64,000 bases of DNA from Eubacteriales bacterium (GCA_045127215.1 JBGVPV010000067.1:272-64271), one strand, 5' to 3'. Positions 46,973 through 63,805 are shown, counted from the first letter of the stretch. Made by a program: numbers and translations. The notes: generated by a model from the letters alone, not told the origin.

Positions 46973-46990
46973 GCCCGTAAGGTACCGCTT

Positions 46991-47860: not shown

Positions 47861-47884
47861 CGGGCGCAGAAAGGAGGTCAGATA

Positions 47885-48301
47885 ATGGCTTACGTTCCCG
47901 TTCCGAAAGACTTAACCAAAGTCAAAAGCAAATTCGCTTTTAATCTCACGAAGCGTCAAATATTCTGTTTCGGACTTGCGGCGGCTATCGGGCTACCGCT
48001 TTTCTTTTTACTCAAAGGGGCGACGGGTACAACCGTTGCGGCGTTTGCAATGATACTTGTAATGCTCCCTTGCTTCCTCTTTGCTATGTATGAGAAAAAC
48101 GGTATGCCGCTTGAAAAGGTACTACGAAACGTCATACAGACAAAATTCATTCGCCCGAAAGAGCGACCGTATAAAACACAGAACTTTTACGCCGTCGTAG
48201 AACGGCAGACGAAACTAACAAAGGAGGTATCAGCTATTGTCAAAGGTACAGACAGTAAAACCAAGAGCGCAGACGGCAAGCGCACCGAGCGTAAGCCGTA
48301 A
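47885..48301 (+). CDS. PrgI-family (VirB3-like) T4SS membrane protein
   Basis: MAYVPVPKDLTKVKSKFAFNLTKRQ plus a two-TM hairpin. It lies directly upstream of VirB4. Confidence 0.75.
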   Translation: MAYVPVPKDLTKVKSKFAFNLTKRQIFCFGLAAAIGLPLFFLLKGATGTTVAAFAMILVMLPCFLFAMYEKNGMPLEKVLRNVIQTKFIRPKERPYKTQNFYAVVERQTKLTKEVSAIVKGTDSKTKSADGKRTERKP

Positions 48302-50678
48302 GCTCTCCCGCGCCGAACAAAATCAAATTGCCGCCGCGATCAAACGCGCAAAGGGCGACGGCAAGGCGAAAACGGCACAGCAGACAATCCCGTATCAGCA
48401 GATGTACCGCGACGGCGTTTGTCATATCGGCGGGAAGAAATACAGTAAAAGCGTTCAGTTTGAGGATATAAACTATCAGCTTGCACAGCCCGACGAAAAG
48501 AGCGCGATTTTCGACCATTGGTGCGATTTTCTCAACTACTTTGACGCTTCCGTGTCGGTACAGTTATCTTTCATCAATCAAGGCACAAAAAGCGACGAAG
48601 CCGAAAAAGCGATTGAGATCACCCCGAAAGGCGACGACTTTGACAGCATACGCGCAGAGTACGCGGATATGCTGAAAGGTCAGCTTGCAAAAGGCAATAA
48701 CGGCATAGTCAAAGCAAAATATATTACCTTTTCCGTCGAAGCGGAAAACATCAAGGCGGCAAGGGCCCGACTTGCCCGCATTGAAACCGATATTTTAAGC
48801 AATTTCAAGGTGCTTGGTGTAGCGGCAAAGCCTATGACGGGCTATGACCGTTTGGAAACCCTACACGGCACGTTCCACCCCGACGGCGAGCCGTTCCGCT
48901 TCTCTTGGAATTGGCTTGCCCCGTCGGGACTATCCACAAAGGATTTTATCGCGCCGTCCTCGTTTGCGTTCGGTGATGGGCGCACGTTCAAAATGGGGCG
49001 TAAGCTCGGCGCGGTGTCATTCTTGCAAATCCTTGCCCCCGAACTGAACGACCGTATGCTTGCGGATATTCTCGATCTAGAATCGGGTATTATCGTCAAT
49101 CTGCATATTAAGAGTATCGACCAGGGCGAAGCAATCAAGACCATTAAGCGAAAGATCACAGACCTTGACAAGATGAAGATTGAGGAACAGAAAAAGGCGG
49201 TACGCAACGGTTACGATATGGATATTATTCCGTCCGACCTTGCCACATTCGGCAACGAAGCAAAAAATCTGTTGCAGGAGTTACAGAGCCGCAACGAGCG
49301 AATGTTTTTACTCACGTTCCTTGTCGTCAACCTTGCCGACACGAAACAAAAGCTCGACAATGAAATTTTCTCGGTATCGGGTATCGCGCAGAAATACAAC
49401 TGTGCCTTGACCCGCCTTGACTTTCAGCAAGAAGCGGGCTTTATGTCAAGTCTGCCCCTCGGAGATAATCAGATTGAAATACAGCGCGGGCTGACGACCT
49501 CAAGCACAGCAATTTTTATCCCCTTTATCACACAAGAGCTATTCCAAACGGGCGAAGCTCTTTACTACGGACTTAACGCACTATCAAATAATATGATTAT
49601 GTGCGACCGCAAGAAGCTCAAAAACCCGAACGGGCTAATCCTTGGCACCCCCGGAAGCGGTAAATCTTTCTCGGCAAAGCGCGAAATGACAAACGCCTTT
49701 CTGATTACCGATGACGATATTATCATTTGCGACCCCGAAGCCGAGTATTTCCCCCTTGTTGAGCGTTTACACGGTCAAGTTATCCGTCTGTCGCCGTCGG
49801 GTATTGGTAACGACGGAAAGCCGCAGTACATAAACCCTATGGATATAAACCTTGAATACGACGAAAACCCGCTTGCGCTGAAATCCGACTTTATCCTTTC
49901 TCTGTGTGAGCTGATCGTCGGCGGCAAGACGGGGCTTGAACCCGTGGAAAAGACGGTCATTGACCGCGCTGTGCGGAACGTGTACCGCCCTTTTATGGCA
50001 AACCCCGACCCCGCACAAATGCCTATCTTGGGCGATCTCTACAACGAGCTTTTGAAGCAACCCGAACCCGAAGCTATGCGTATCGCGTCGGCGTTGGAGC
50101 TTTACGTTTCGGGAAGTCTGAACGTCTTTAACCACCGTACCAACGTAGAGCTTACAAACCGCCTTGTCTGCTTTGACATCAAACAGCTTGGCAAGCAGTT
50201 AAAGAAGATCGGTATGCTCATTGTGCAAGATCAAGTGTGGAATCGCGTTACCGTCAACCGCGACGCAAAGAAGTCAACAAGATACTATATCGACGAAATG
50301 CACCTACTCTTAAAAGAAGAACAGACCGCCGCTTACACGGTGGAAATTTGGAAGCGTTTTAGAAAATGGGGTGGTATTCCGTCGGGGCTGACGCAGAACG
50401 TCAAGGACTTGCTTGCTTCAAAGGAAGTGGAAAACATCTTTGAAAACAGCGACTTTATCCTTATGCTCAATCAAGCGGCGGGAGATCGCGCTATCCTTGC
50501 AAAACAGCTTAATATCTCCCCGCGTCAGATGAAGTACGTTACGCAAGCCGACGCGGGCGAGGGACTAATCTTTTACGGAAATGTCATACTTCCGTTTGTT
50601 GACCGCTTCCCGAAGGACACCGAGCTTTACCGCGTTATGACGACCAAGCCCGAAGAAGTGGGAGAAAACACGGTATGA
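48237..50678 (+). CDS. VirB4-like conjugal transfer ATPase (CD1110/PrgJ-type); start uncertain (TTG 48237 overlaps prgI)
   Basis: IPYQQMYRDGVC...FEDINYQLA N-domain, Walker A GTPGSGKS, Walker B YYIDE. Confidence 0.9.
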   Translation: MSKVQTVKPRAQTASAPSVSRKLSRAEQNQIAAAIKRAKGDGKAKTAQQTIPYQQMYRDGVCHIGGKKYSKSVQFEDINYQLAQPDEKSAIFDHWCDFLNYFDASVSVQLSFINQGTKSDEAEKAIEITPKGDDFDSIRAEYADMLKGQLAKGNNGIVKAKYITFSVEAENIKAARARLARIETDILSNFKVLGVAAKPMTGYDRLETLHGTFHPDGEPFRFSWNWLAPSGLSTKDFIAPSSFAFGDGRTFKMGRKLGAVSFLQILAPELNDRMLADILDLESGIIVNLHIKSIDQGEAIKTIKRKITDLDKMKIEEQKKAVRNGYDMDIIPSDLATFGNEAKNLLQELQSRNERMFLLTFLVVNLADTKQKLDNEIFSVSGIAQKYNCALTRLDFQQEAGFMSSLPLGDNQIEIQRGLTTSSTAIFIPFITQELFQTGEALYYGLNALSNNMIMCDRKKLKNPNGLILGTPGSGKSFSAKREMTNAFLITDDDIIICDPEAEYFPLVERLHGQVIRLSPSGIGNDGKPQYINPMDINLEYDENPLALKSDFILSLCELIVGGKTGLEPVEKTVIDRAVRNVYRPFMANPDPAQMPILGDLYNELLKQPEPEAMRIASALELYVSGSLNVFNHRTNVELTNRLVCFDIKQLGKQLKKIGMLIVQDQVWNRVTVNRDAKKSTRYYIDEMHLLLKEEQTAAYTVEIWKRFRKWGGIPSGLTQNVKDLLASKEVENIFENSDFILMLNQAAGDRAILAKQLNISPRQMKYVTQADAGEGLIFYGNVILPFVDRFPKDTELYRVMTTKPEEVGENTV

Positions 50679-51625
50679 GCGAGAACATCATTATCAACCG
50701 CGATTGTCTTGCCGCTCTCCGCGACCTACCCGACGAAAGCGTGAATTGCTGTGTAACGTCGCCGCCGTATTACGCCTTGCGGGATTATGGTATGGACGCG
50801 CAGATCGGACGCGAGGACAACCCCGAAGAATATATACGGCGGCTTGTTCTTGTGTTCCGAGAGGTGCGCCGCGTGCTGACCGCCGACGGCACTTTATGGC
50901 TGAATATCGCAGATACCTATTGCGGAACGGGCAACAAGGGCGGCTATCTTGACCCGAAAAATCCCAAAGGCAGAAACGGGCAAAGCGTTTCACTTGCGCG
51001 TCGTGCGAGCGAGTGCAAGCAAAAGGATATGATCGGTATTCCGTGGCTGCTTGCATTCGCTCTCCGCGCCGACGGGTGGTATTTGCGAAGCGACATTATA
51101 TGGTGCAAGGCAAACCCTATGCCCGAAAGTTGCAAAGACCGTCCGAGCCGTTGCTATGAACACGTCTTTTTGCTCACCAAGTCAAAGAAGTATTACTATG
51201 ACGCGCTCGCCATAGCCGAGCCGATTGCCGAGGGTACGGCGGCAAGGTATAAAGGCGGGCGAAGTGCAAGCAGTAAATACGCCGAGGAAATCCCCGGACA
51301 AGGTAAGGTGCAAAAGCTCAACGCGGCGCGGGCGGCGGGTACGATCATCGACGCGGATATATCCCCCGTCAGAAACGCCCGCGACGTGTGGCATATCAAC
51401 ACCGTACCATACAAGGGCGGGCATTTTGCCGCCTACCCGCCGAAGCTCGCGGAAAGGTGTATTTTAGCGGGCTGTCCTCGCGGCGGTATCGTTCTTGACC
51501 CCTTTTTCGGAAGCGGCACAACGGGGCTTGCGGCAGTTAAGAATGACCGCCGCTATATCGGTATCGAGTTAAACAGCGAGTATTGCGAGCTTGCAAAAGA
51601 ACGTATTGGAGGTGTGAAGTTATGA
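50675..51625 (+). CDS. Orphan DNA methyltransferase (N6-adenine/N4-cytosine, beta class)
   Basis: Motif IV CVTSPPY is N-terminal and motif I DPFFGSGTT is C-terminal. It has 4-nt overlaps with both neighbours. No restriction gene is adjacent. Confidence 0.85.
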   Translation: MSENIIINRDCLAALRDLPDESVNCCVTSPPYYALRDYGMDAQIGREDNPEEYIRRLVLVFREVRRVLTADGTLWLNIADTYCGTGNKGGYLDPKNPKGRNGQSVSLARRASECKQKDMIGIPWLLAFALRADGWYLRSDIIWCKANPMPESCKDRPSRCYEHVFLLTKSKKYYYDALAIAEPIAEGTAARYKGGRSASSKYAEEIPGQGKVQKLNAARAAGTIIDADISPVRNARDVWHINTVPYKGGHFAAYPPKLAERCILAGCPRGGIVLDPFFGSGTTGLAAVKNDRRYIGIELNSEYCELAKERIGGVKL

Positions 51626-52950
51626 GCGAGCCGCAAAAGCCCAAAAGCTACCGCTTACAATTCACCGATGAAGAACGGGCAAGCCCCGAGCTTGACAAGT
51701 TCATCAAGAAATCGGAGAAAGCGGCTGACCGCTACGACAAGGCAAGTGCGGCTATCCCGAAGAAAAACAAAATAGTCAAGGAACGTACTTTTGACGAAGC
51801 AACGGGCAAGGCAAAAACGCGGCTTCACTTTGAAAAACAGGACAAGCCGCCGAGCGACGCGAGGGGCAAGCACAAAATCCCCTTGCGCCCCGTCGCCCAA
51901 GCCGAGTTATACGTTCACGGCAAAATACACGAAGTTGAGAAAGACAATTCGGGCGTGGAAGCGGCGCACAAGAGCGAGGAACTTGCCGAGGGCGCGGCGA
52001 AGTACGGGGCGCGGAAGCTCAAAGAGGGCTACCACAGCCGCAAGCTCAAACCCTATCGAGCCGCCGCCAAAGACGAAAAAGCGGCTATCAAGGCAAACGC
52101 AGAATTTAAGTATCAAAAAGCACTCCAAGATAACCCGCAGATCGCCGCATCAAATCCATTTTCCCGCTTTATGCAAAAACAGCGTATCAAGCGCGAGTAT
52201 GCAAAGGCGGCGAAAAAAGGCGGTATCAAATCGGCAAAGAAAACCGCCGAGAACGCGGGCAAAGCCGCAAAGAAAACGGCACAAACAACCAAAAACACCG
52301 TTTCATTTGTAGCGCGTCATTGGAAAGGCGTATTGATCGGTATTTGTGCGCTACTGCTTTTCGTGATAATCTCGGCGGGCGTTACCTCTTGCGTATCACT
52401 TTTAACGGGCGGTATGTCAACCGTCGTTGGAAGCTCCTACGTTGCCGAGGACGCGGATATGCTCGGTGCGGAAGCCGATTACAAGTCAAAGGAAGCGGCA
52501 TTACAAAGCCGTATTGACAATATCGAGCGCACATATAGCGGCTACAACGAGTACCGCTATTTCCTTGACAGTATCGGACACGACCCTTATGTGCTGACTT
52601 CCATTCTGACGACCTTGCACATTGACTATACCCGCGCGGGCGTACAAGACACCTTGCAGACGATTTTTGATATGCAATACAGCTTAACGCTCACGTCCGA
52701 AACCGAAGTACGCTACCGCACCGAAACCCGCATTGGAAGCTATCAAGTAACCGATGAGGAAACGGACGAGGTATCAACCGTTTACTACGAATACGAGGTA
52801 GAAGTGCCATACAACTATTACATTCTGAACGTCAGCTTAACAAGTGAGGATATGGCGGGGCTGACCGCTTACCTTATGACCGATGAACAGTTTGACGCCT
52901 ACCTTGTGTATATGCAGACAAAGGGCAACCGCCCCGACCTATTCCCATAA
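51622..52950 (+). CDS. T4SS-associated membrane protein resembling the N-terminal part of CD1108-type mobile-element proteins; no hydrolase domain seen
   Basis: Start set to ATG 51622 (MSEPQKPKSYRLQFTDEE), an ATGA overlap. It has a Lys/Ala-rich N-region, one TM (VLIGICALLLFVIISAGV), then about 190 aa. No NlpC/P60, CHAP, M23 or lysozyme motif was found. Confidence 0.5.
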   Translation: MSEPQKPKSYRLQFTDEERASPELDKFIKKSEKAADRYDKASAAIPKKNKIVKERTFDEATGKAKTRLHFEKQDKPPSDARGKHKIPLRPVAQAELYVHGKIHEVEKDNSGVEAAHKSEELAEGAAKYGARKLKEGYHSRKLKPYRAAAKDEKAAIKANAEFKYQKALQDNPQIAASNPFSRFMQKQRIKREYAKAAKKGGIKSAKKTAENAGKAAKKTAQTTKNTVSFVARHWKGVLIGICALLLFVIISAGVTSCVSLLTGGMSTVVGSSYVAEDADMLGAEADYKSKEAALQSRIDNIERTYSGYNEYRYFLDSIGHDPYVLTSILTTLHIDYTRAGVQDTLQTIFDMQYSLTLTSETEVRYRTETRIGSYQVTDEETDEVSTVYYEYEVEVPYNYYILNVSLTSEDMAGLTAYLMTDEQFDAYLVYMQTKGNRPDLFP

Positions 52951-52974
52951 TTTTTGAAAGGAGATTTACAGCCT

Positions 52975-53232
52975 ATGGCAAACAGCAAAATTAACCGTAT
53001 CGACAAAGAGATTTTGAAAACCCGTGAGAAGATCAGCGAGTACCAAAACAAATTGCGCTCCCTTGAAGCGCAAAAGGCAGAAGCCGAAAACTTGCAGATC
53101 GTACAGCTTGTACGCGCTATGCACCTAACCCCCGCCGAGCTTTCCGCTTTGCTTGCGGGCGGTGGAATCCCCGGCATTGCAACAGTACCCGCAGAAGATG
53201 AAAACGAGGAGGACAGCGACAATGAAGAATAA
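52975..53232 (+). CDS. DUF4315-family coiled-coil protein
   Basis: Start set to ATG 52975 (MANSKINRIDKEILKTREKISEYQNKLRSLE), which follows AAAGGAG. Confidence 0.7.
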   Translation: MANSKINRIDKEILKTREKISEYQNKLRSLEAQKAEAENLQIVQLVRAMHLTPAELSALLAGGGIPGIATVPAEDENEEDSDNEE

Positions 53233-54049
53233 AAACATATTCCGTATGACGAGTGTATTGCTCATTTCAATACTTTGCGTATGCGGGCTTTCCCTTAACG
53301 CTTACGCAAGCGACGGCGGCGATTATTACAGCACCGAGCCGACCGAAGAAACAACCAACCCGCCCGTTATCGTTATTCCCGCAGAGAGCGAGGACGACGA
53401 GCAGACAGACGAGCCTATCATCATCAAGCCCGAAAACGCCTTTACCCCTGACGGCAATATGACGCTGATTGATAACGTCGAGGGCGAGGACGAAGGACAG
53501 AAGCAGTTTATCATTGTTCAGAGTAAAAACGGACACTATTTTTATATCGTGATCGACTACTCTGCCGAGGGCGAAAACACGGTACATTTTCTTAACCAAG
53601 TGGACGAAGCCGACCTTATGGCAATTTTAGCCGAGAAAGAAATCACCCTTTCCCCCGCCGAGTGTACTTGTACCGATAAATGCGCCGTGGGCGACATTGA
53701 CACCACTTGCTCCGTATGTATTGCGGCTATGAATGATTGCGCGGGCGCGGAAGCAACGACGCCCGATGAAACAAACCCGCCTGCAGACGATGAACAGCCC
53801 GCCCCAAGCGGACTAAACACGGGCGCGATTATCGGCATTGTTGCTATTCTTGCACTTGCGGGCGGCGGTATCTTCTACTATTTCAAGGTGTTAAAGCCCA
53901 AACAGCAGAAGAACAAACAGCCGCAGGACGCGGAGCTTTCCGAGCTTGAATATGACGAGTACGACGAGGACGAGGAATATACCGAAGCACTTGAAGAAAT
54001 TGCCGACGAAATGAGCTACGATACCGACGACACGGACGATAAAGAATAA
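53222..54049 (+). CDS. DUF4366-family (CD1107-type) surface protein with signal peptide and C-terminal TM anchor
   Basis: Start set to ATG 53222 (MKNKNIFRMTSVLLISILCV). FTPDGNMTLIDN...KQFIIVQSKNGHYFYIVIDY is the DUF4366 core. The TM is IIGIVAILALAGGGIFYYF and the tail is acidic. Confidence 0.75.
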   Translation: MKNKNIFRMTSVLLISILCVCGLSLNAYASDGGDYYSTEPTEETTNPPVIVIPAESEDDEQTDEPIIIKPENAFTPDGNMTLIDNVEGEDEGQKQFIIVQSKNGHYFYIVIDYSAEGENTVHFLNQVDEADLMAILAEKEITLSPAECTCTDKCAVGDIDTTCSVCIAAMNDCAGAEATTPDETNPPADDEQPAPSGLNTGAIIGIVAILALAGGGIFYYFKVLKPKQQKNKQPQDAELSELEYDEYDEDEEYTEALEEIADEMSYDTDDTDDKE

Positions 54050-54055
54050 AAAATT

Positions 54056-54077
54056 CCCTCTGCGATTTAGCAGAGGG
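54056..54077. terminator. Hairpin between DUF4366 and the AT-rich cargo gene
   Basis: ccctctgc, loop gattta, gcagaggg. Confidence 0.5.
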
Positions 54078-54083
54078 AAAACA

Positions 54084-54818
54084 TCATTTATTATCTTTTT
54101 TATTTTCTGTTTTATCGTCATTGTGGGATTTTTTTGCTCGTTCCAATAGTCTTTGGAATGTAACAACAAAAAGGCACATAACAATCATTGCCATAGTAAT
54201 GACAGTTATTATTATGACAGTTTCCATTCCATGAAGAGACCCTGACATAATAGGAAATACATCCAACATCACAAAAGAGAATAAAGTCAAGAAAGCTGAA
54301 AGCATTGCTACCATTATGCTGAAAGTAGATGAAAGTTTTTTTGAATATTCCATTTTATTTATTTTAGTGGAAACAATCAATTCCTTTTCTATTTCAGTAA
54401 CTAATAGTGATTTATCGCGCTCTTTGTTCAAGTTGTGAAGATATTCTCTTAAGTGAGCGGTATATTCTTGCTTTTTATCTGCAGAAACATATACATTTTC
54501 CACGATTTCTCGTATTAACTCCTCGCAGACAATACGAATTGAATATAATTCTTCGCTTTTAACCTTATATTTTCTTGCTGTCGAAAGAATAATTGCATCT
54601 ATAATTTCTTTTTCAGGCAATCCCTTTTCAGCAATATATGGTTTTAGAGAACGGATTATATCCAAGTTGGCGTTATTTATCTGTTCAAGATACTTTGTGT
54701 TTTCTTTTCGATGCAAAATACCTGCGGTTATAAAATAGACGATTATACCGCTGATAATTCCGCCACCAATGCCTACTACCCAAGCATTAGAAAATAACTT
54801 TACAAGGAAATCCCACAT
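54084..54818 (-). CDS. Hypothetical 3-TM membrane protein, AT-rich cargo gene on the opposite strand
   Basis: Start set to ATG 54818 (MWDFLVKLF), which follows GAGAGG. It has one N-terminal TM, a ~150-aa helical soluble region, and a C-terminal TM hairpin. A spot count on one 60-nt line gives ~30% G+C. Confidence 0.6.
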   Translation of the reverse strand: MWDFLVKLFSNAWVVGIGGGIISGIIVYFITAGILHRKENTKYLEQINNANLDIIRSLKPYIAEKGLPEKEIIDAIILSTARKYKVKSEELYSIRIVCEELIREIVENVYVSADKKQEYTAHLREYLHNLNKERDKSLLVTEIEKELIVSTKINKMEYSKKLSSTFSIMVAMLSAFLTLFSFVMLDVFPIMSGSLHGMETVIIITVITMAMIVMCLFVVTFQRLLERAKKSHNDDKTENKKDNK

Positions 54819-54898
54819 ATCATACCTCTCAATCAAGTGTCGTTTATTGTCTAAATTATATCATAAAAACTCGAAAAAATCAATAGAAAGGAAATAAT

Positions 54899-56971
54899 AT
54901 GAAACTTATTATCGCAGAAAAGCCGAGCGTCGCGCAGAATATCGCCGCCGCGCTGAACGTGGGCGGCAGAAAGGACGGATATATTGAGGGCGGCGGTTAT
55001 CTGATCTCTTGGTGTGTGGGGCATTTGGTAGGACTTGCGGCGGCTGACGCTTACGGCGAGCAGTACGCAAAATGGAACTATGATACGCTTCCCATTCTCC
55101 CGAAAGAATGGCAGTACACCGTCGCCACCGACAAAGGCAAGCAATTCAAAATCCTAAAAGAGCTTATGCACCGCGCCGACGTTTCCGAAGTCGTCAATGC
55201 TTGCGACGCGGGGCGCGAGGGTGAATTGATCTTCCGTTTTGTGTATAACGTAGCGAACTGTAAAAAGCCTATGCGCCGTCTTTGGATTTCCTCTATGGAA
55301 GCCGAAGCTATCCGCGCGGGCTTTGCTGATCTGAAGGACGGCGCAGACTATGACGCGCTCTATTCTTCCGCGCTGTGTCGTGCAAAGGCAGATTGGATTA
55401 TCGGTATCAATGCGACCCGCCTTTTCTCTTGTCTGTATCATAAGACCTTGAACGTAGGACGAGTGCAGACCCCGACCCTCAAAATGCTCGTTGACCGCGA
55501 AGCACAGATTATGAGCTTCAAGAAAGAAAAGTACCACATTGTACGCCTTGATCTTGACGGCACCGAAGCGACAAGCGCGAGGATCTCCGACAAGTCAGAA
55601 GCAGACAAGCTGACCGCCGCTTGCAAAACCTCAAGCGCGGTTTGCGTATCGGTCAGCCGCGAGAAAAAGAGCGTCGCACCGCCCAAGCTCTTTGACCTTA
55701 CCACCTTACAGCGAGAAGCAAACAAACTCTACGGCTACACAGCAAAGCAGACCCTTGATCTCGCGCAAGCTCTCTATGAAAAGCGTCTGCTTACATATCC
55801 GAGAACGGACAGCACCTATCTCACCGAGGATATGAGCAAAACGGCGGCAAGCGTCGCCGCTTTGCTCACGGCAAAACTACCCTTTATGAGAGGCGCGGAT
55901 TTTACCGCCGATCTTTCCCGTATGCTTGACAGTAAAAAGGTGTCAGACCACCACGCGATCATTCCCACAATGGAGCTTGAAAAGACCGAGCTTTCGGCAC
56001 TTCCCGAAACCGAGCGTAACATCTTATCTCTTGTCGGTGCGCGTCTGCTTTTTGCGGCCGCCGCACCGCACGTTTACGAAACGGTAAAAGCTATCTTCTG
56101 TTGTGCCGATACAGAGTTTACAGCAACGGGAAAGACGGTACTTTGCGGCGGGTGGAAAGAGCTTGAACGACGCTACCGCGCAACGCTCAAACAAAATCCC
56201 GACGACGAGGACGGCGACGTTCCCACACTCACCGTTTCCGAGGGACAGAGCTACGATAACCCCGCCGCGAGTGTTACCGAGCATTACACCACACCCCCGA
56301 AATCCCACACCGAAGATACCTTACTTTCGGCTATGGAACGGGCGGGCAACGAGGACACCGACGAGGACGCAGAACGTCGCGGGCTTGGTACTCCCGCCAC
56401 CCGCGCCGCCGTCATTGAAAAGCTCGTCAGCGCGGGATTTGCAGAGCGAAAAGGAAAACAGCTTATCCCCACCAAAGACGGCAACAACCTTGTGTGTGTT
56501 CTCCCCGACGTGCTGACAAGCCCGAAGCTGACGGCAGAATGGGAAAACACCTTGACGCAGATTGCAAAAGGAAACGCTGACGCAGACGTTTTTATTTGCG
56601 GTATCGAAGATATGACACGGGAGCTTGTAAAGATATATCCTTTCCTCTCCGACAGGGACAAAGCCCTTTTCAAAGAGGAAAAGCCCATTGTCGGTAAGTG
56701 TCCCCGTTGCGGTGAAAACGTCTTTGAGAGCAAGAAAAACTATTACTGCTCAAACAGAGATTGCGCCTTTGTGATGTGGAAAAATGACCGCTTCTTTGAG
56801 GAACGCAAGGTGAAGTTTACCCCCAAAATTGCCGCCGAGCTTTTGGAGGACGGCAAGGCGAAAGTCAAAAAGCTGTATTCTCACAAAACGGGCAAAACCT
56901 ACGACGGAACGGTACTACTCTCCGACACGGGCGGTAAATACGTCAATTATCGTATAGAGAAAACGAGGTAA
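54899..56971 (+). CDS. topB: DNA topoisomerase III
   Basis: Toprim start MKLIIAEKPS, GHL, catalytic region LLTYPRTDS, and a C-terminal C4 zinc ribbon (CPRCGENV...YYCSNRDC). Confidence 0.9.
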   Translation: MKLIIAEKPSVAQNIAAALNVGGRKDGYIEGGGYLISWCVGHLVGLAAADAYGEQYAKWNYDTLPILPKEWQYTVATDKGKQFKILKELMHRADVSEVVNACDAGREGELIFRFVYNVANCKKPMRRLWISSMEAEAIRAGFADLKDGADYDALYSSALCRAKADWIIGINATRLFSCLYHKTLNVGRVQTPTLKMLVDREAQIMSFKKEKYHIVRLDLDGTEATSARISDKSEADKLTAACKTSSAVCVSVSREKKSVAPPKLFDLTTLQREANKLYGYTAKQTLDLAQALYEKRLLTYPRTDSTYLTEDMSKTAASVAALLTAKLPFMRGADFTADLSRMLDSKKVSDHHAIIPTMELEKTELSALPETERNILSLVGARLLFAAAAPHVYETVKAIFCCADTEFTATGKTVLCGGWKELERRYRATLKQNPDDEDGDVPTLTVSEGQSYDNPAASVTEHYTTPPKSHTEDTLLSAMERAGNEDTDEDAERRGLGTPATRAAVIEKLVSAGFAERKGKQLIPTKDGNNLVCVLPDVLTSPKLTAEWENTLTQIAKGNADADVFICGIEDMTRELVKIYPFLSDRDKALFKEEKPIVGKCPRCGENVFESKKNYYCSNRDCAFVMWKNDRFFEERKVKFTPKIAAELLEDGKAKVKKLYSHKTGKTYDGTVLLSDTGGKYVNYRIEKTR

Positions 56972-57108
56972 GAAAAGAAACGTAGCAAGCATAGGAAAGG
57001 GGTACCCCTTCCGTAAATATCCCCGCTTTCGCTCTTAACGATTGCGGGGATATTCGTTTGCTGGGATATTCCCAAACCCTTATATAAAAATAGCGAAAGG
57101 AGCTTTAT

Positions 57109-60100
57109 ATGGACGAAACCTTTGCAATTCTAATTGACAGCAAAACCCGCTTTGAAACGGGTACAGCGGGCGGCTTTTGGCTTGATATGCCCGCTACGAA
57201 AGAACAGCTACACGCGGCGATGGAAAGTGTCGGGATTACGTCAAATAACCCGCAGGACTTTTTCATTCGCGGGTATATGGATAACGAACAAAATCACATA
57301 GCTTTGCCGCACGATCTTGTTTGTGCGGCAGACGTTGACGAGCTTAATTTTCTTGCGGCGCGTCTTGCCGAGCTTGACCCCGCAGAGATCGAAAAGCTCA
57401 ATGCCGCTTTGCAGAGCAAAATGGGCTTTGAGAACGTCGGGAAGATCATCGACTTTACCTATAACACCGATTTTTTTGTTCACGTTCCCGAAGCGCACAC
57501 GGCGCGGGAGCTTGGCGACTACTATCTAAACAAATCGGGTGCGGTGCAAATGCCCGAAGAATGGAAAGGCGGGATTGACCTTGCTATGTTCGGACAGCAC
57601 GCCGCCGAGCGCGAGGACGGCGCATTTACGCAGTACGGATATATCACCAAAAGCGGCGACGAGTGGGAGCGTCAATTTGAGGGGCGCGACGTTCCCGAAG
57701 AATACCGCATTATGAGTTATCCGCAACCGGCACGACTTGACCCCGAAAAGGTGGAATTTGATACGATTGCCACAAGGCAAGCGGCTGTCCTTACGGCAGA
57801 GCCGCCCGAAGCTATCCCCGTAAAACCGATCATTCCGACGGCGACAGACCCGAACGGAAAGCTGAAAGAGATTACTGACCGCTTGGAACAAGGTATTGCC
57901 GACCTTTTCAATAGCGAGCGTTTCAAAGAATACCTAAACGTAATGTCGAAATTCCACAATTACAGCTTTAACAATACGGTGCTGATTGCCTTGCAGAAGC
58001 CCGACGCTTCACTTGTTATGGGCTTTAACGCTTGGAAAGGAAAAGGCATTGAAAGGAACGTCAAAAAGGGCGAGCAAGGCATACGCATTTTTGCCCCCGC
58101 GCCTTATAAGATCAAGACCGAAGCGGAAAAGCTCGACCCCGACACAAAGAAGCCCATTATCGGTGAGGACGGCAAGCCGATCACCGAAACAAAAGAAATC
58201 ACCATACCCGCCTTTAAGGTGGTATGCGTCTATGACGTTTCGCAGACTGAGGGAAAGGAGCTACCGACGCTCGGTATTGATGAACTGCTCGGAAGCGTGG
58301 AAAATTACAAGGATTTTTTCGCCGCACTTGAAAAGACCTCTCCCGTCCCGATTGCCTTTGAGCAGATCGAGGGCGGCGCACACGGTTATTATCACCTTGA
58401 GGACAAGCGCATAGCTCTTGACGAGGGTATGAGCGAACTGCAAACCTTGAAAACGGCAATACACGAAATCGCACACGCAAAGCTACACGATATTGACCTT
58501 AACGCCCCCGCCGAGGAACGGGCGAACAGACCCGACAGACGCACACGCGAGGTTGAAGCGGAAAGCGTCGCCTATACCGTCTGTCAGCATTACGGGCTTG
58601 ATACGTCGGATTACTCTTTTGGCTACGTTGCGGGTTGGAGTAGCGGGCGTGAAATGTCGGAACTGAAAAGCTCCCTTGAAACTATCCGCGCAACCGCCGC
58701 CGAGATCATAGACAGCATTGACGCGCACATAGCGGAAATTCGAAAGGAGCGCGAAGCGGCACCGCCCGAACTTGACTCCAAAGGAGAACCGATGGTTACG
58801 ATCATTTGGAGTGAAAACAGCAAGCTCCGCGACGGTGAAACAATGCCCCTATCCCGCGCCAACGCTTTGTTTGAAGCTCTTGACGCGCAGAACAAAGATA
58901 CCCCCGGCTACGATAAAACAAAATTCCGTATTGACTTCACCCTTGACGGCAAGCCCGAACAGTATGAAGGACGCCAGGACTTAGGCGACGGCGAAGGATC
59001 CTTGATAGATCACATTGAAAAATTCAACGCCTATTATCTGAATAACGAGGAATGGCAGAATCAGCTATTACGGAGTGAGGGGCGCAAAGCTATGGAAGCA
59101 GACCGCGCCACACGCGGGCTTTTGGTGGGCGAGGTTGTCCCGTACTTGCGGCTTCATTGCAACCTCTCGGAAATGGAGCAAGCGGCGAAAAGTGCGCTCC
59201 ATAACACCGCAAGTCTGACACCCATTGATACAGCATATTTTACGGCAATTACCGAGTATGTTGCAGAGTGCCGCGCTATGCTCAACAGCGGGATCTACGA
59301 GCTTCCCGAAGCTCCGAAGCGGTCAGACTTTGACCCCGAATTGCAAGCATACAAAGCACAAGTTAAGGCAGAGGTCAAAAAGGAAACATACTTTGAGATT
59401 TACCAAATCGCAAACACCGAGCAGACGGCAGAAATCGTCTTTGAGCCATACGACCGATTGATAGCTACGGGGCATACTGTTGACCCCGCAAATTACGAAT
59501 TGGTGTACTCCGCGCCGCTTACGCCCGATATGACGCTTGAAGATATTTACACACGTTTCAATATCGACATTCCCGAAGATTACACGGGACGCAGTTTGTC
59601 GCTCTCTGATGTGGTGGTGCTTCATCAAGACGGCGACGTTAGCGCACATTACGTTGATAGCGTCGGCTTCCGCGAGGTACCGCAGTTTCTTGACCGCGAC
59701 AAAGCACAAGTGATTATCCCCGGCGAACACACGACGGGCGAAAAGATCACGACGCCGCGCGGCAGTTTCAGCGTTACCGATATGACCCGCGAGCAAATGG
59801 AAGTGGCGGGCTACGGCGTACATCATACGTCCGAGGACGGCAAGCACTTGATTATGGGAAATGGTACAAACGCTTTCGCCGTTGTCGCAGAAAATCCCAT
59901 AAAGCACGTTGAGGACACAATCGAGCAGAACGACAACAAGTTTGACGGTATCATCAACAACACGCCCGAACCACCCACCGTTGACGCATTGGAAGCAAAA
60001 GCAAAGGCGGGCGAGCCGATCTCCCTTGTCGATCTTGCAAATGCAATCAAGGCAGAGGAAAAGGGCGGCAAGAGTAAGCCTAAAGAGGAAAAACAATCTA

Positions 60101-60192
60101 TCCGCGCACAGCTTAAAAAGGACGCGGGCAAAGAAAAAGCCGCCCCGAAAAAAGCGGCGACCAAAAAGAAAAATAACGATTTGGAGGTATGA
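57109..60192 (+). CDS. Polyvalent ICE protein: ArdA-like(?) N-domain, ArdC-type ssDNA-binding domain, HExxH metalloprotease, YodL-like domain, Lys-rich tail
   Basis: ArdC N-domain FKEYLNVMSKFHNYSFNNTVLIALQKPDASLVMGFNAWKGKG. Zincin motif TAIHEIAHAKLHD. YodL-like YFEIYQI...LEDIYTRFNIDIPEDYTGRSLSLSDVVVL. The first ~200 aa (GGFWLDMPATKEQLHAAM...VDELNFLAARLAEL) resemble ArdA. Confidence 0.7.
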   Translation: MDETFAILIDSKTRFETGTAGGFWLDMPATKEQLHAAMESVGITSNNPQDFFIRGYMDNEQNHIALPHDLVCAADVDELNFLAARLAELDPAEIEKLNAALQSKMGFENVGKIIDFTYNTDFFVHVPEAHTARELGDYYLNKSGAVQMPEEWKGGIDLAMFGQHAAEREDGAFTQYGYITKSGDEWERQFEGRDVPEEYRIMSYPQPARLDPEKVEFDTIATRQAAVLTAEPPEAIPVKPIIPTATDPNGKLKEITDRLEQGIADLFNSERFKEYLNVMSKFHNYSFNNTVLIALQKPDASLVMGFNAWKGKGIERNVKKGEQGIRIFAPAPYKIKTEAEKLDPDTKKPIIGEDGKPITETKEITIPAFKVVCVYDVSQTEGKELPTLGIDELLGSVENYKDFFAALEKTSPVPIAFEQIEGGAHGYYHLEDKRIALDEGMSELQTLKTAIHEIAHAKLHDIDLNAPAEERANRPDRRTREVEAESVAYTVCQHYGLDTSDYSFGYVAGWSSGREMSELKSSLETIRATAAEIIDSIDAHIAEIRKEREAAPPELDSKGEPMVTIIWSENSKLRDGETMPLSRANALFEALDAQNKDTPGYDKTKFRIDFTLDGKPEQYEGRQDLGDGEGSLIDHIEKFNAYYLNNEEWQNQLLRSEGRKAMEADRATRGLLVGEVVPYLRLHCNLSEMEQAAKSALHNTASLTPIDTAYFTAITEYVAECRAMLNSGIYELPEAPKRSDFDPELQAYKAQVKAEVKKETYFEIYQIANTEQTAEIVFEPYDRLIATGHTVDPANYELVYSAPLTPDMTLEDIYTRFNIDIPEDYTGRSLSLSDVVVLHQDGDVSAHYVDSVGFREVPQFLDRDKAQVIIPGEHTTGEKITTPRGSFSVTDMTREQMEVAGYGVHHTSEDGKHLIMGNGTNAFAVVAENPIKHVEDTIEQNDNKFDGIINNTPEPPTVDALEAKAKAGEPISLVDLANAIKAEEKGGKSKPKEEKQSIRAQLKKDAGKEKAAPKKAATKKKNNDLEV

Positions 60193-60194
60193 GA

Positions 60195-60404
60195 ATGAAC
60201 ACAATATTTACCGTTGAGGAAACAAACCTTATCAGCATTTACATTTACGAAGATCGCGAAAGTCTGATAGAGGAAATGAGCGACGCGCTCCCCTATATGG
60301 ACGAGGATATGCGCGACCTTGCAAACTGTACCCTTGAAAAGCTCCGCACTATGACCGACGATGAATTTGCCGAGCTTGACATTTACGCGGCTGACGAGGA
60401 ATAA
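60195..60404 (+). CDS. Transposon-transfer assisting protein (TTRAP) family
   Basis: Start set to ATG 60195. MNTIFTVEETNLISIY...MTDDEFAEL is typical of the family. Confidence 0.7.
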   Translation: MNTIFTVEETNLISIYIYEDRESLIEEMSDALPYMDEDMRDLANCTLEKLRTMTDDEFAELDIYAADEE

Positions 60405-60515
60405 CGCCCACAAGCGCGAGGGCGCACCCTACGCGCCTTTCGCGCCGCAGACAGCAAACACACACGGCGCAGACAAACGCGCCCAAAACGAATTTTAGCG
60501 TACCCAAAACAAACA

Positions 60516-60558
60516 GACGGGGCGCGGCACCGATACGGCTGCCGCGTCCCGTCTTTTT
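60516..60558. terminator. Bidirectional terminator hairpin, left copy (flanks the AT-rich cassette)
   Basis: gacggggcgcggca (60516-60529) pairs with tgccgcgtcccgtc (60540-60553) with one G-U, followed by a T-run. It abuts the stop of the minus-strand HNH-like gene. Confidence 0.75.
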
Positions 60559-61489
60559 AATTTCGTTTATGTTCTTCTGCAAGTTTTCTTTCTTCAATTT
60601 CCCATTCTTTTGTGATTTCCTCAAAAGCCGCTTTTGTGCCAGGTTCTGCACCATTCCGCATTGCTGTGATTTCATCAAACATACTTTGTCCCCACGTTAC
60701 ATCAATCAAATTAAATAGGTGGTATGTTGTTTCACTTGTGCAACGTGAAAGTGTTGCTGTATTACTATCGGAAAGCATCGCATAGGGATATTGCAATTTT
60801 AAAATGGTATTGTTTCTTTCAAATATTTCATCGGTAATTCCTTTATCCCAACACAGAACAATGAACTGAACACTATTAAAGCGAAAAAGATATGATGTTG
60901 CAAGAGATTCAAAAGTTTCAACTTCGCGCGGCTCTCTAATATGTATTTGCCCCGTTTCGTAATTTATATGATCGACTATGCTGTTGCTTAAAAAGATAGG
61001 TGATTGACACCATTGCAATTTTTGATTGCCAAACATAAAATCGGGAGCAGGCGAATTATTTACCGCTAACCCCGCTAAAACTGTTACGTTTTTTAACGGC
61101 GCGGTTTCACTTTCATTCATCAAAAAATGTAAAATATCATCATCGAAAAAATCTGTATTTTCTCTTTTTGATCGCATATCGTTAAACGCATATTTTAATA
61201 GCATTTTTTGAATTAAAGCATAATCAAAGTTTATATTGAGTGTATCATCAACACCATACTTGGAAAGGAAATATTGACTGATAAAATTCTTTGCATAACT
61301 ATCAATGTATGAAATTCTTTGGTTGTTACACACGGCACATACATCGTTTACCATAGGGTCAGCAGGATATATTTTCCCTCTATTGCTATCTATGGTTAAA
61401 AAACATTCGGGGAATAAATCAAGTATGCCACTTGAAATGATATGTTCTTTTGTTGGCTTCGCTTCTTTTTTGCAGTACGCACACAGCAT
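60557..61489 (-). CDS. HNH-like nuclease domain protein with ~250-aa unknown C-terminal domain (AT-rich cargo)
   Basis: N-terminal pattern C3-x2-C6 ... E15-H16 ... N48 ... C51-x2-C54-N55 (MLCAYCKKEAKPTKEHIISSG...VNDVCAVCNN) fits a zinc-finger HNH/beta-beta-alpha-Me motif. RBS GGTGAGGTGA. Spot counts on two 60-nt lines give 27% and 33% G+C. Confidence 0.6.
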   Translation of the reverse strand: MLCAYCKKEAKPTKEHIISSGILDLFPECFLTIDSNRGKIYPADPMVNDVCAVCNNQRISYIDSYAKNFISQYFLSKYGVDDTLNINFDYALIQKMLLKYAFNDMRSKRENTDFFDDDILHFLMNESETAPLKNVTVLAGLAVNNSPAPDFMFGNQKLQWCQSPIFLSNSIVDHINYETGQIHIREPREVETFESLATSYLFRFNSVQFIVLCWDKGITDEIFERNNTILKLQYPYAMLSDSNTATLSRCTSETTYHLFNLIDVTWGQSMFDEITAMRNGAEPGTKAAFEEITKEWEIEERKLAEEHKRN

Positions 61490-61577
61490 AGTATCACCTC
61501 ACCTATTCAATCATTAACAATATAATTATAACATATTTTCGTGAATTTTTCTACCATTTTCCCGTTTTTCTATACCA

Positions 61578-61606
61578 TTGAAAAAAGCAAAAAAATATGG
61601 TATAAT
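61578..61606 (+). promoter_or_regulatory. Sigma-A-type promoter with extended -10 for the HExxH gene
   Basis: TTGAAA (61578-61583), 17-nt spacer ending in TGg, TATAAT (61601-61606). Confidence 0.55.
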
Positions 61607-61642
61607 ATTTTCAAAAGCCATAACAGAAAGGAAATTCTAACA

Positions 61643-62407
61643 ATGTGTATGGATATTTACAAAAACATAATAAACGAATATTTTAATGATATGAGTATTA
61701 CTCCGTTTGATATAAATATTGTTGAAACAACAGATGTAAAATCGGCTTATTATAAAATCCGTCCCGATCAAATTGGAAAAGATGATAAAAGTGACGGATA
61801 TTATAACGGCTTCTGTGTTCCTCCAAAAGATAACGACGGATTATTTACTATTCTGCTTGATAAAAATAATATCGACCGTTCCAAAGAGAACGGTAACTAT
61901 AATTGGGTAGGCACAATCGTTCACGAAACAACACACGCAGACGATTATATAAAATACCGCCAACTAATTTCTGCACAAAGCTATGACGAATTATATGATC
62001 ATAACAAACATCGAATATTTGGATTTTGGACAGAGTACCACTCTCGCGTTATGGGACAGCATTATGTTATAAAATACTCGATTGCAAACAATCACCCTTG
62101 TGGCAATGAAGAATATGTAATGAATACCGAAATGGAAAAATTACTAAAATGGTACAATGAAACTCCCGCAGAAAGTGGAGATAAATTATTGGAATTGTTG
62201 GCTACACTATTAGGTATGATTTCAGCGTGGGAAGATAATTTCCACGATTCCTTTAATAATTCTTTTGTTCACGAGCTATTTCAAGATACGCCAGATATGG
62301 AAAATCTATATGAGTTATTAAGAGAACATAATACCATTGAAAAAGCTGTTCCGCATTTTGATAAATTATATCAGCTTTTGAAAATATTATATCCTGAAAT
62401 GCCTTAA
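61643..62407 (+). CDS. Hypothetical protein with HExxH zincin-like motif (AT-rich cargo), divergent from the HNH-like gene
   Basis: Start set to ATG 61643 (MCMDIYKNII), which follows AAAGGAAA. The only recognisable motif is WVGTIVHETTHADDY. 254 aa with no signal peptide or TM. Confidence 0.55.
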   Translation: MCMDIYKNIINEYFNDMSITPFDINIVETTDVKSAYYKIRPDQIGKDDKSDGYYNGFCVPPKDNDGLFTILLDKNNIDRSKENGNYNWVGTIVHETTHADDYIKYRQLISAQSYDELYDHNKHRIFGFWTEYHSRVMGQHYVIKYSIANNHPCGNEEYVMNTEMEKLLKWYNETPAESGDKLLELLATLLGMISAWEDNFHDSFNNSFVHELFQDTPDMENLYELLREHNTIEKAVPHFDKLYQLLKILYPEMP

Positions 62408-62455
62408 AAAACGGGACGTGGTAACAAGTAAGTTTACCGCGTCCCGTCCTTTTTA
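62406..62455. terminator. Bidirectional terminator hairpin, right copy (flanks the AT-rich cassette)
   Basis: acgggacgtggtaa (62411-62424) pairs with ttaccgcgtcccgt (62434-62447) with one U-G. It is flanked by an A-run and a T-run. The arm sequence is shared with the hairpin at 60516-60553. Confidence 0.75.
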
Positions 62456-62458
62456 CGT

Positions 62459-63805
62459 TTATAGTATTGTTTCTTTCTTTTTCGCTTGCCCTCGGTCAAT
62501 CTTCAAAAAGCTGTCTATGTTCCGCTTCATTGTGTCATATTCCTTCACTTGCTTTTTGAGCTTGCCATAGTCAGCGTATAGGGCTTCTTTCTGCTCGGTC
62601 AGCTTTGCATATTCCGCTTGGAGCGCGGCAACGCTTGAGAGCTTACCGCCGACGTTAGCGGCGCGTAGTGCCTTTGCCGCCGCTTCATAGAGTATCAGAT
62701 CGCTTTCGTGAGAAGCGCGGAACTGCTCTTTGTTCTTCGCCTTTTTGTACGCTTCATAGACGGGCTTTGTCTTTTGGTACGTCGTGATATTCTTTATCAA
62801 AACCGCCATATCCGCAAGCCGCCTTTCGACACCCTTTAATGCGTCTGCCGCTTGCTCACTCGCCGCTGTGATTTCATCAATGCGGGCGATCAAATCCGTG
62901 TACTGCTCGATCTTATGCTCGGTTAAGAAATTGACCGTCTTTGCCGCTTGTTTGAGGTTATGAATTTTCGCCCATTGCTCATATCCTCGGCTCTGCTGTG
63001 CCTTGATACTGTTTTCAATATCAATGATAAGAGATACGCCCCTTTGCTCGATCTTGGGAGCTTTCGCGGCGCGGGTGCATTTGCCGTTGATACGCTCGGT
63101 AATTGCTTCCTCTGTATAGTCGGCACCGAGGGTTTTAAGACGGGTAAAACGCTCTTGACCTTGTGCGCGGCACGATATGTATTTACCGCGCTTGATCTCA
63201 TATCCCGCCGCCTGCAAACGCTGTAATAATTCTTCAAAGCTCGATACCTGGGGAATAAGCGCGTCCACCGCGATTTTGAGCTTGGATTTCCAACTCTTAC
63301 CCGCCTTGTCCGCTTGATACTCGGCGTAATGCTTGCCCTTGTTTTCGCTCGGCTCGACGACGGACAACCCGTTTTCGCGGCATAGCCGATCACTTGTATT
63401 TCGGATATTGTAATAGGTGCGCTTATTGGAATTGTACTTGTGATGATCTACGAAGTTTACGGCGCAAAAAATAATGTGATTGTGGATATGCCCCTTGTCA
63501 ATATGCGTCGTCAAAACGTATTCGTGCTGACCCTTTGTTACCGCGTCGGCAAGCTGATGCCCGATTTCGTGGGCTTTCTCATATTCCACTTCTCCCGGCG
63601 CAAAAGATTGTATCAAATGGTGGGCGAGATTATTGCCTTTCTCCATAGCTTGCGACAAGGTAAATCCGAACTCAATATCTGCCGTTTCATAGGAACAGCC
63701 GAACGAGGACACAAGGATTTTTTCGTCCGTCTTTGCGGGATTTTGGATATAGTCAAGTGCCTTGCTTAACGTGCTTTTAATAGGCTTAATCTTTGTAACC
63801 GCCAT
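62459..63805 (-). CDS. Relaxase (MobA/VirD2 family relaxase/mobilisation nuclease domain)
   Basis: N-terminal Tyr motif KALDYIQNP and histidine triad HIDKGHIHNHIIF. The C-terminal half is coiled-coil. Confidence 0.85.
   Translation of the reverse strand: MAVTKIKPIKSTLSKALDYIQNPAKTDEKILVSSFGCSYETADIEFGFTLSQAMEKGNNLAHHLIQSFAPGEVEYEKAHEIGHQLADAVTKGQHEYVLTTHIDKGHIHNHIIFCAVNFVDHHKYNSNKRTYYNIRNTSDRLCRENGLSVVEPSENKGKHYAEYQADKAGKSWKSKLKIAVDALIPQVSSFEELLQRLQAAGYEIKRGKYISCRAQGQERFTRLKTLGADYTEEAITERINGKCTRAAKAPKIEQRGVSLIIDIENSIKAQQSRGYEQWAKIHNLKQAAKTVNFLTEHKIEQYTDLIARIDEITAASEQAADALKGVERRLADMAVLIKNITTYQKTKPVYEAYKKAKNKEQFRASHESDLILYEAAAKALRAANVGGKLSSVAALQAEYAKLTEQKEALYADYGKLKKQVKEYDTMKRNIDSFLKIDRGQAKKKETIL

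Follow-up and report, generated by a model that had tools for sequence, protein, structure and literature searches.

What is an AT-rich block of two divergent genes doing in the backbone of a conjugative element, and do the two genes belong together? The question is raised by a 64,000-nt stretch of DNA from Eubacteriales bacterium (GCA_045127215.1 JBGVPV010000067.1:272-64271), referred to throughout as the window. The block lies in an integrative and conjugative element (ICE), between the TTRAP gene (60189-60404, + strand; Pfam PF14203, E 6.8e-25) on its left and the MobA/VirD2-type relaxase gene (62459-63805, - strand; Pfam PF03432, E 7.6e-36) on its right, and holds gene A (60557-61489, - strand, 310 aa) and gene B (61643-62407, + strand, 254 aa), both present where a preliminary description had located them. 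That description took the two for a nuclease-plus-protease pair acting as one module. Comparison with related loci, here given L numbers such as L011, supports a different view. The block is probably horizontally acquired cargo in a cargo slot of a Bacillota conjugative element family, and it appears to consist of two independent single-gene modules, with separate promoters and histories, stacked in this ICE cargo hotspot. That both genes are stand-alone conflict (defence-type) genes is the reading we prefer, at a probability of about 0.5; the defence role is one that we infer, since PADLOC finds nothing for either protein (0 families, E <= 1).

The foreign character of the block is seen in its composition. 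The G+C content is 33.1% over 60559-62436 (gene A 34.6%, intergenic region 25.5%, gene B 32.5%), against 49.2% in the ICE backbone (44000-60404), 47.8% in relaxase/mobC and 44.8% in the chromosomal part of the window, and the compositional shift first noted from spot counts is thereby upheld. The highest-scoring pair of sigma-70-like sites in this region stands back to back in the 153-bp stretch between the genes and bears out the suggestion that each gene has a promoter of its own. The site for gene B (61578-61606, + strand; TTGAAA, 17-nt spacer, TG, TATAAT) is the best of the region with 11/12 matches, and that for gene A (61525-61553, - strand; TAGAAA, 17-nt spacer, TG, TATAAT) has 10/12; both contain the extended -10 TG. 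The gene A site lies ~35 nt upstream of the ATG, which is served by the ribosome-binding site AGGTGAGGTGA. Gene B starts at an ATG, as in its homologues, and the listed open reading frame (ORF) of 288 aa begins at a GTG within the promoter.

Stable hairpins occupy both ends of the block, as had been proposed. The left hairpin, GACGGGGCGCGGCA / TGCCGCGTCCCGTC (60516-60553, both strands), is the ancestral bidirectional terminator, serving TTRAP on the + strand and gene A on the - strand, while the right hairpin, ACGGGACGTGGTAA / TTACCGCGTCCCGT (62411-62447, both strands), terminates gene B (+) and the relaxase gene (-). Folded as RNA, the left one gives -35.6 (+) and -34.5 (-) kcal/mol and the right one -25.6 and -26.1 kcal/mol on the two strands, with z-scores of -4.4 to -6.9 and no shuffled sequence equally stable. 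Each is flanked on both sides by A and T tracts and therefore looks like a bidirectional intrinsic terminator. A simple terminator scan with a loop limit of 3-8 nt listed neither hairpin; their loops were read as about 9-10 nt. The direct repeat described in the hairpin arms was found again and could be extended from 12 to 17 nt: CCGCGTCCCGTC(T/C)TTTT, identical at 16/17 positions between copy 1, CCGCGTCCCGTCTTTTT (60542-60558), and copy 2, CCGCGTCCCGTCCTTTT (62437-62453), the former given by repeat search and the latter by repeat search and empty-site comparison. The 12-mer core is found at only these two places in the window. Exact 12-nt repeats are not unusual in shuffles of the region, and the repeat is regarded as non-random because it occupies the same arm of both bracketing hairpins and because of the empty sites.

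These empty sites came from a relaxase scan with one genome per species, which turned up 384 relatives; 80 of the loci were retrieved. In two of them, L030 and L038, whose relaxase and TTRAP proteins are 97% and 90-92% identical to those of the window, the two genes converge across a gap of 167-177 bp that contains a single hairpin copy, so the preliminary description was right in expecting a single ancestral convergent terminator and cassette-free relatives of this layout. The intergenic sequence of L030 and L038 is that of the window's left junction through the complete hairpin and its T tract, followed directly by the window's right flank, and ~25 nt of the L030 hairpin align to both cassette ends of the window, where a 1.88-kb segment sits between two copies of one hairpin arm. 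The insertion appears to have left one hairpin intact, the second being rebuilt from the duplicated 17-nt arm plus new sequence, and all four genes therefore keep a terminator. The left hairpin is the single hairpin of the empty sites and is homologous to the hairpin that follows the relaxase stop codon family-wide. Of the relaxase-proximal one, read in the relaxase sense, only the 5' arm, AAAAAG(G)ACGGGACGCGG, is common with the family hairpin, and the loop and 3' arm are cassette-specific. A similar 3' hairpin was looked for at gene B homologues elsewhere and none was found; the second hairpin thus belongs to this ICE insertion alone and does not seem to have travelled with gene B from the other contexts inspected.

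No transposase-like ORF was found in 60405-62458 and no terminal inverted repeats at the cassette ends. A transposon or insertion sequence was rejected on these two grounds and because a 17-nt direct repeat exceeds typical transposase duplications. Recombination anchored in the hairpin sequence is the likeliest route by which the cassette would have entered.

An observation on the repeat itself may be added here. Both flanking copies in the window (60542-60553 and 62437-62448) read CCGCGTCCCGTC, with T, and both copies in the sister elements L011 and L012 read CCGCGCCCCGTC, with C (in L011 at positions ~815-830 and ~2725-2740). By our pairing of the arms, the C makes an A-C mismatch and weakens the relaxase-side hairpin of L011. 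The agreement between the copies within each element suggests either copy homogenisation or independent local target duplication.

Two points tell against the direction of events given above: the junctions would be explained just as well if the "empty" relatives had lost the cassette by a clean deletion from one 17-nt repeat to the other, and the direction of insertion rests on composition and family-wide parsimony, not on the junctions. The cassette would then be ancestral in the sub-lineage. Recombination between the repeat copies would indeed yield exactly the L038 sequence, and filled and empty backbones are about equally diverged (94-96%), which gives no phylogenetic polarity. Such loss is nevertheless highly unlikely in our view. 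The cassette has a 16-point G+C deficit, and the hairpin stands immediately 3' of the relaxase stop codon in empty members of both ICE sub-families; unrelated cargo occupies the same point in other relatives; and genes A and B have closer or equal relatives in unrelated elements. The first three of these observations are the reasons for favouring acquisition.

The variation among relatives indicates that the slot is used repeatedly. In fetched relatives carrying both genes the relaxase-TTRAP gap ranges from 167 to 3491 bp, and in distant ones (relaxase ~80% identical) a Cys_rich_VLP gene follows TTRAP and the relaxase stop is ~560-3491 bp from TTRAP. Cargo in the slot of relatives includes an Mrr_cat nuclease, BlaR1 with BlaI, a metallo-beta-lactamase-fold protein, OmdA, an FAD oxidoreductase, a SEC-C protein and several family-less proteins, and the G+C of the extra DNA is low, at 0.40-0.46. 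The window cassette is therefore one instance of a general pattern, the slot being the short stretch, a few bases long, that separates the relaxase stop codon from the conserved convergent terminator hairpin.

Five relatives show a further feature at the slot, an R repeat of ~190-320 nt in 2-4 direct copies (L078:7330-10490, L105:7699-9995, L040:8462-9290, L047:7330-8577 and L091:7330-8021). The repeat begins with the family terminator hairpin and takes in the last ~48 nt of the Cys_rich_VLP gene. In L078 three cargo genes each stand between copies of it; a promoter-like segment that they share is partly repeated as well, and the arrangement looks like a cassette array. The array could have originated by Campbell-type homologous integration of repeat-carrying circles or by a hairpin-directed mechanism, and the 17-nt duplication of the window may have come about in the same way on a smaller scale. 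A search of Rfam with the cassette and the R repeats gave nothing beyond chance hairpin matches.

Integron gene cassettes consist of an ORF with a hairpin-forming attC site. The bracketing in L078 is alike in that ORFs, with or without promoters, are stacked at one site and have repeated hairpin-forming sequences at their borders. The repeats here differ, being ordinary terminator hairpins with up to ~300 nt of backbone, of which the window duplicates 17 nt only, and no integrase was identified within or beside the slot as read in the window. So far the array is better explained by homologous (Campbell-type) recombination or unequal exchange than by an integron route. A bolder version would make the post-relaxase hairpin an active capture site that delivered A and B as two new single-gene anti-phage families. 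Hairpin-bounded cassettes would enter through single-stranded or hairpin DNA recombination in transfer, or as repeat-carrying circular intermediates, and would give both integron-like arrays such as L078 and the duplicated 17-nt arm of the window; gene A would be a sensor-gated HNH nuclease of new fold and gene B a Lit-like gluzincin with a hypervariable recognition patch. We consider this distinctly unlikely as a whole.

The known counterpart of the slot is the cargo hotspot of conjugative elements, for example of the SXT/R391 ICEs. Common to both are a fixed intergenic position in the backbone, cargo that varies among relatives, and foreign composition of that cargo, some of it with restriction-nuclease or resistance-related domains. 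The present slot differs in being set by a convergent terminator hairpin directly after the relaxase stop, in the 17-nt duplicated hairpin arm that flanks the insert (the R repeats bracketing cargo in some relatives) and in having no recombination function identified for it. ICEs and integrative and mobilizable elements carry defence genes (PMC10201445), and cargo with candidate defence genes in a conjugative-element hotspot is a known phenomenon (PMC10201445).

Whether the two genes of the cassette act together was judged from where each is found alone. They are adjacent only in the ICE lineage of the window: the full pair occurs in L011 and L012, and L013 and L014 have the same layout, truncated, on shorter contigs. 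In the inspected non-ICE contexts no gene A homologue was seen beside gene B and no gene B homologue beside gene A. The closest non-ICE copy of gene A (L027, 83% aa identity) has nucleotide homology to the window only over 60552-61501, that is, the ORF with its ribosome-binding site, and the 247-aa gene beside that copy was tested as a cryptic gene B and is not one. Alignment with the sister ICE L011 shows mosaic divergence. The backbone is 94-96% identical, the 3' 680 nt of gene A (60559-61238) ~99%, the 5' end of gene A with the intergenic region 70-90%, and the first two-thirds of gene B ~94%, while a 240-nt patch of gene B (62079-62318, + strand; ~aa 146-225) falls to ~65% nucleotide and 47% amino acid identity, compared with ~94% and 92-93% elsewhere in gene B. 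Genes A and B, and even parts of them, thus seem to have been exchanged separately. The near-identical 3' two-thirds of gene A and the divergent patch of gene B suggest a recent exchange of the former gene and a hypervariable surface in the product of the latter.

These data bear directly on the initial proposal of one system, with a nuclease effector and a protease regulator or partner serving defence, exclusion or addiction. In its favour, A and B are divergent neighbours whose promoters stand back to back within 153 bp, share the same foreign base composition, and are retained as a pair in a second ICE variant (L011, L012). Their lack of co-occurrence outside this ICE lineage, the great difference between the two families in size and distribution, the homology of gene A alone with L027 and the unlike divergence histories against L011 make such a system very unlikely, and by distribution it appears largely refuted. 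The co-occurrence check that had been called for thus went against the idea of a module, and the suggested defence or exclusion role is still plausible gene by gene, from neighbourhoods. A toxin-antitoxin or addiction module was rejected as well, given two large proteins (310 and 254 aa) encoded divergently and a pairing that is not conserved. Among the neighbours of A or B homologues no shared gene and no conserved small ORF partner was found.

Taken singly, gene A belongs to a sizeable family, with at least 293 homologue clusters among the candidates, nearly all of ~310 aa, in named hosts including Clostridium novyi, C. butyricum, C. haemolyticum, Clostridioides difficile and Tissierella. 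Identity across Clostridia is 54-83%, with 54 invariant positions. The N-terminal CxxC...EH...CxxCN pattern picked out at the start held: C3, C6, E15, H16, C51, C54 and N55 are all invariant in 43 homologues, and the N-terminus is best described as a sub-threshold Cys4 His-Me finger (HNH_5-like) pattern. HNH_5 matches were obtained in 40/43 relatives at E <= 0.1 (best 4.5e-6) and in a distant Bacillus homologue at E 7.2e-5, and one relative has a precomputed PF14279 match. The AlphaFold model is a confident single chain (predicted local distance difference test, pLDDT, 92.9; predicted template modelling score, pTM, 0.92), in which the motif region is modelled as a strand (12-16), a second strand (46-51) and a helix (52-58). 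With the catalytic His ending strand 1, Asn on the following helix and a flanking Cys4 knuckle, the predicted arrangement is consistent with the His-Me layout.

Gene A agrees with HNH_5 His-Me nucleases in the invariant residues of the CxxC ... EH ... CxxCN pattern. It differs in that the profile matches over the first ~20 residues only, in the spacer of ~33 aa from EH to the second CxxC, in its own match lying below the curated cut-off and in the attached 250-aa domain without a PDB counterpart. The classification of His-Me nucleases includes an uncharacterised bacterial 'group 8' (PMC5714182). The C-terminal domain, initially called unrecognisable, is globular and conserved, with many invariant polar residues and no PDB match. 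With the whole model, Foldseek gave no PDB match at E <= 0.001 (best E 0.035), and the gene A profile found nothing among PDB sequences; the only significant match in BFVD was one uncharacterised Myoviridae protein.

Gene A homologues occur in prophages of Clostridia, on plasmids and in islands rich in insertion sequences. A tblastn search with the protein gave no match in 50,697 deposited phage genomes and, among plasmids, only distant Bacillus and enterobacterial relatives; on Bacillus plasmids a distant homologue is full-length (hhalign probability 99.6%), the next gene being a PDDEXK_4 one that weakly matches PDC-S26, with XerS after it. Homologues are present on 6 IMG/VR contigs and in five C. 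difficile prophage variants between replication/RusA genes and terminase, adjoining a NACHT/nSTAND3/SNaCT5 gene in 4/5 of these. Another lies in an IS-rich (insertion sequence) region before a DUF4365 restriction endonuclease-like gene, another on a serine-recombinase element before a DUF4238-like gene (a weak match, under the Pfam cut-off), and one is flanked by McrBC and type I restriction-modification (R-M) genes. In L114 (4444-8537) the homologue sits between the prophage Dit (distal tail) and Tal (tail endopeptidase) genes, an unusual moron position.

From such positions gene A might instead be a free-standing selfish HNH homing-type endonuclease, with gene B an unrelated passenger and neither helping the host. 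It moves as a bare ORF, the homology with L027 reaching no more than 5 nt beyond its stop codon and 12 nt ahead of its start codon, and occupies intergenic prophage positions (at Dit/Tal, and before packaging genes). Its 3' 680 nt are near-identical between ICE variants whose backbones differ by 5%, and HNH group 1 includes phage homing endonucleases (PMC5714182). What makes this unlikely is the 250-aa C-terminal domain, globular, strongly conserved (54-83%) and unlike any solved PDB structure, together with the lack of any copy among the deposited phage genomes searched and the position of several copies in chromosomal R-M or McrBC islands and not among phage genes. For gene A as a stand-alone defence gene, we propose a latent Cys4 His-Me (HNH) nuclease that would be kept inactive by its large C-terminal domain and, on sensing an invader, would cut nucleic acid. 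A self-contained, trigger-gated sensor-nuclease is suggested because the gene combines an invariant His-Me/Cys4 site and a large conserved domain with no conserved partner.

Gene B homologues were found in 7 clusters by word search and as 219 representatives by exhaustive HMMER profile search, and the family consists almost wholly of single-domain proteins of 250-270 aa. HETTH had been named as the only motif of the protein. Its H94, E95 and H98 are invariant in 85 diverse members, and so is E131, which had gone unlisted; the four are the only invariant columns. The HExxH...E arrangement is the gluzincin pattern and gene B is predicted to encode a zinc metallopeptidase, the invariant residues being placed on helices 87-108 and 124-148 of a confident model (pLDDT 95.6). 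Weak peptidase-profile matches occur in the family, to SprT-like in 7/85 members and to PhageMetallopep in 3/85. The best PDB sequence-profile matches are Pro-Pro endopeptidase/Zmp1 of C. difficile and an ATLF-like (anthrax lethal factor-like) domain, gluzincins to which gene B aligns over HExxH(a)iD ... (W)xEFxA with both zinc-ligand motifs, though at an E of only 0.12-1.3, and Foldseek does not recover these structures for gene B. Pro-Pro endopeptidase/Zmp1 and the ATLF-like enzymes are secreted, whereas gene B is without a transmembrane-grade hydrophobic stretch. Neither it nor the gene A protein has a hydrophobic stretch over the usual transmembrane threshold, and the gene B protein is predicted to be soluble and cytoplasmic. 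With gene B, tblastn gave no match in the same 50,697 phages and one partial match among plasmids.

A perfect 18-nt inverted repeat was noticed at gene B. Its arms (61601-61618 and 62374-62391) are 755 nt apart, one holding the -10 box of the gene B promoter and the other lying in the last codons of the gene (LLKILY). This length was reached in 0/300 dinucleotide shuffles, and in the sister allele L011 the arms agree at only 16/18 positions. It could be an inversion switch or chance.

Several gene B homologues are found next to defence and toxin genes. In L111 (1466-8289) four genes lie between hsdS and hsdR of a type I R-M operon, namely the gene B homologue, HEPN_AbiU2 and two unknowns; the start codon of the homologue overlaps the hsdS stop and the HEPN_AbiU2 gene comes next. 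L008 (1614-6907) contains a type II operon of the cyclic oligonucleotide-based anti-phage signalling system (CBASS; CD-NTase, E1/E2-like, JAB and Metallophos-SAVED-S24), with a DUF4238 gene upstream; its last gene fuses Metallophos, SAVED and Peptidase_S24, and the gene B homologue follows 68 bp downstream. A further homologue has the end of a type IIG R-M/methylase gene on one side and a ParE/YafQ toxin gene on the other, and others come after a serine recombinase or beside SH3-domain, sigma-factor and helix-turn-helix (HTH) genes. For the 151-aa gene upstream of gene B in L001, a ToxN/AbiQ-like guess was supported by neither Pfam nor PADLOC.

These neighbourhoods also bear on the possibility that the genes serve the ICE rather than the cell, gene B as an ArdC-type anti-defence or establishment protease and gene A as an anti-competitor or entry-exclusion nuclease. 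Conjugative elements carry many anti-defence genes, and the cassette is near one: directly upstream of TTRAP is the gene of a 1027-aa polyvalent protein (57109-60192, + strand) with ArdA, ArdC-N, zincin-like metallopeptidase (M78/DUF6782/MPTase-PolyVal), LPD25, YodL and DUF4316 domains, an anti-restriction protein to which the weak SprT-like matches of the gene B family might be added. Gene B is however no copy of its metallopeptidase domain, a derivation that we rejected, as the two share only HExxH (hhalign probability 6%). Relatives of gene B are embedded in host defence operons (type I R-M, CBASS), which is not the side of the conflict where an anti-defence gene belongs; the slot is downstream of the relaxase and, as we read it, in no obvious leading region. 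A role in the service of the ICE is doubtful on these grounds, no more probable than the homing-type endonuclease.

We therefore return to gene B as a stand-alone defence gene, for which two known kinds of protease offer comparisons. The Lit protease of prophage e14 (Peptidase_U49) is a single-gene abortive-infection zinc metalloprotease. Gene B resembles it as a stand-alone, mobile-element-borne HExxH protein of similar size, predicted to be cytoplasmic, and Lit is the most economical working model for gene B because of these likenesses. It differs by the invariant downstream Glu of the gluzincin pattern and by the hypervariable helical patch, and membership of the Lit family itself was rejected, as there was no U49 match in Pfam and no PADLOC model match. 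CapP/ImmA-IrrE (M78) regulatory metallopeptidases go with CBASS and mobile elements (bioRxiv 10.1101/2022.04.27.489752). An HExxH protease by a CBASS operon (one gene B relative, L008) and on mobile elements is similar, but the gene B relative stands downstream of that operon on the same strand. Neither gene B nor its family matched M78 and no HTH gene is adjacent in the cassette or in L008, so that an ImmA/IrrE-CapP protease was likewise rejected. In the proposed scheme gene B would encode a cytoplasmic HExxH...E zinc peptidase, latent at first and acting like the e14 Lit protease. A trigger or substrate would be recognised through its variable helical surface (aa 146-225), and the peptidase would then halt infection by cleaving a protein of the host or the invader. 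Latency is suggested because an invariant zinc site is combined with a hypervariable helical surface that may be under diversifying pressure or allelic exchange. Each of the two genes would thus shield the host cell, and hence the ICE, from phages or rival elements.

Several facts lower the probability that both genes are of defence type. Neither protein reached a family at threshold in Pfam, NCBIfam, PHROGs or PADLOC-DB v2, and gene B has no match in any curated peptidase family. The gene A protein of the window scores 14.3 bits with HNH_5 (E 0.039), below the curated cut-off of 27.5 bits, and the Foldseek top 50 for gene A contain no HNH protein, the motif being small and possibly missed in a 310-aa query. 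Against the PDB, Foldseek recovered for gene B a zincin-like core only, the best match being YbeY (1oz9) at probability 0.92, which is weak by other measures (E 0.5; template modelling, TM, score 0.26/0.44; 104 columns). About 15 loci inspected by hand supply the neighbourhood evidence, which is not a statistical enrichment, cargo regions of mobile elements are rich in defence genes anyway, and some gene A contexts, such as the prophage tail module, fit a selfish endonuclease equally well.

What is new lies in the proteins themselves: both stand outside the four family collections just named, and the gene A fold is unrepresented in the PDB. A literature search found no description of the gene A family, the gene B family or the slot. 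Should stand-alone immunity functions be confirmed for A and B, two compact single-gene families, whose confidently predicted folds lack a close PDB match, would be added to a field in which, to our knowledge, the defence systems of gut Clostridia are poorly explored experimentally. The genes would then also show that a widespread family of conjugative elements of gut Bacillota uses the terminator after its relaxase as a plug-in site for genes of this kind; the site takes genes of beta-lactam-sensing or resistance-type domains as well (BlaR1/BlaI and the metallo-beta-lactamase-fold protein). No current idea is overturned by the finding and its practical value is modest: two candidates with clear catalytic mutants (H16A/N55A in gene A; E95A/H94A in gene B) and a defined slot for surveys of ICE cargo.

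The surrounding backbone is that of a genuine conjugative element. Besides the ArdA/ArdC polyvalent protein, it contains genes for a VirD4/TraG-type coupling protein (44800-46563), a VirB4-like ATPase (48237-50678) and a topoisomerase (54899-56971), and ordinary chromosome is found in the window upstream of ~42 kb, with pheT, ilvD and an acetolactate-synthase-like gene. A look-up of proteins identical to the window TTRAP, aimed at intermediate forms, returned no record. In one relative a second, decayed copy of the region was observed (L031:389-1691), with an internally deleted relaxase gene and without gene B and the second hairpin. Here the sequence corresponding to window position 62474 is joined to that at 61571, and gene A is cut at the equivalent of 60977 and joined to ICE sequence from ~53268.

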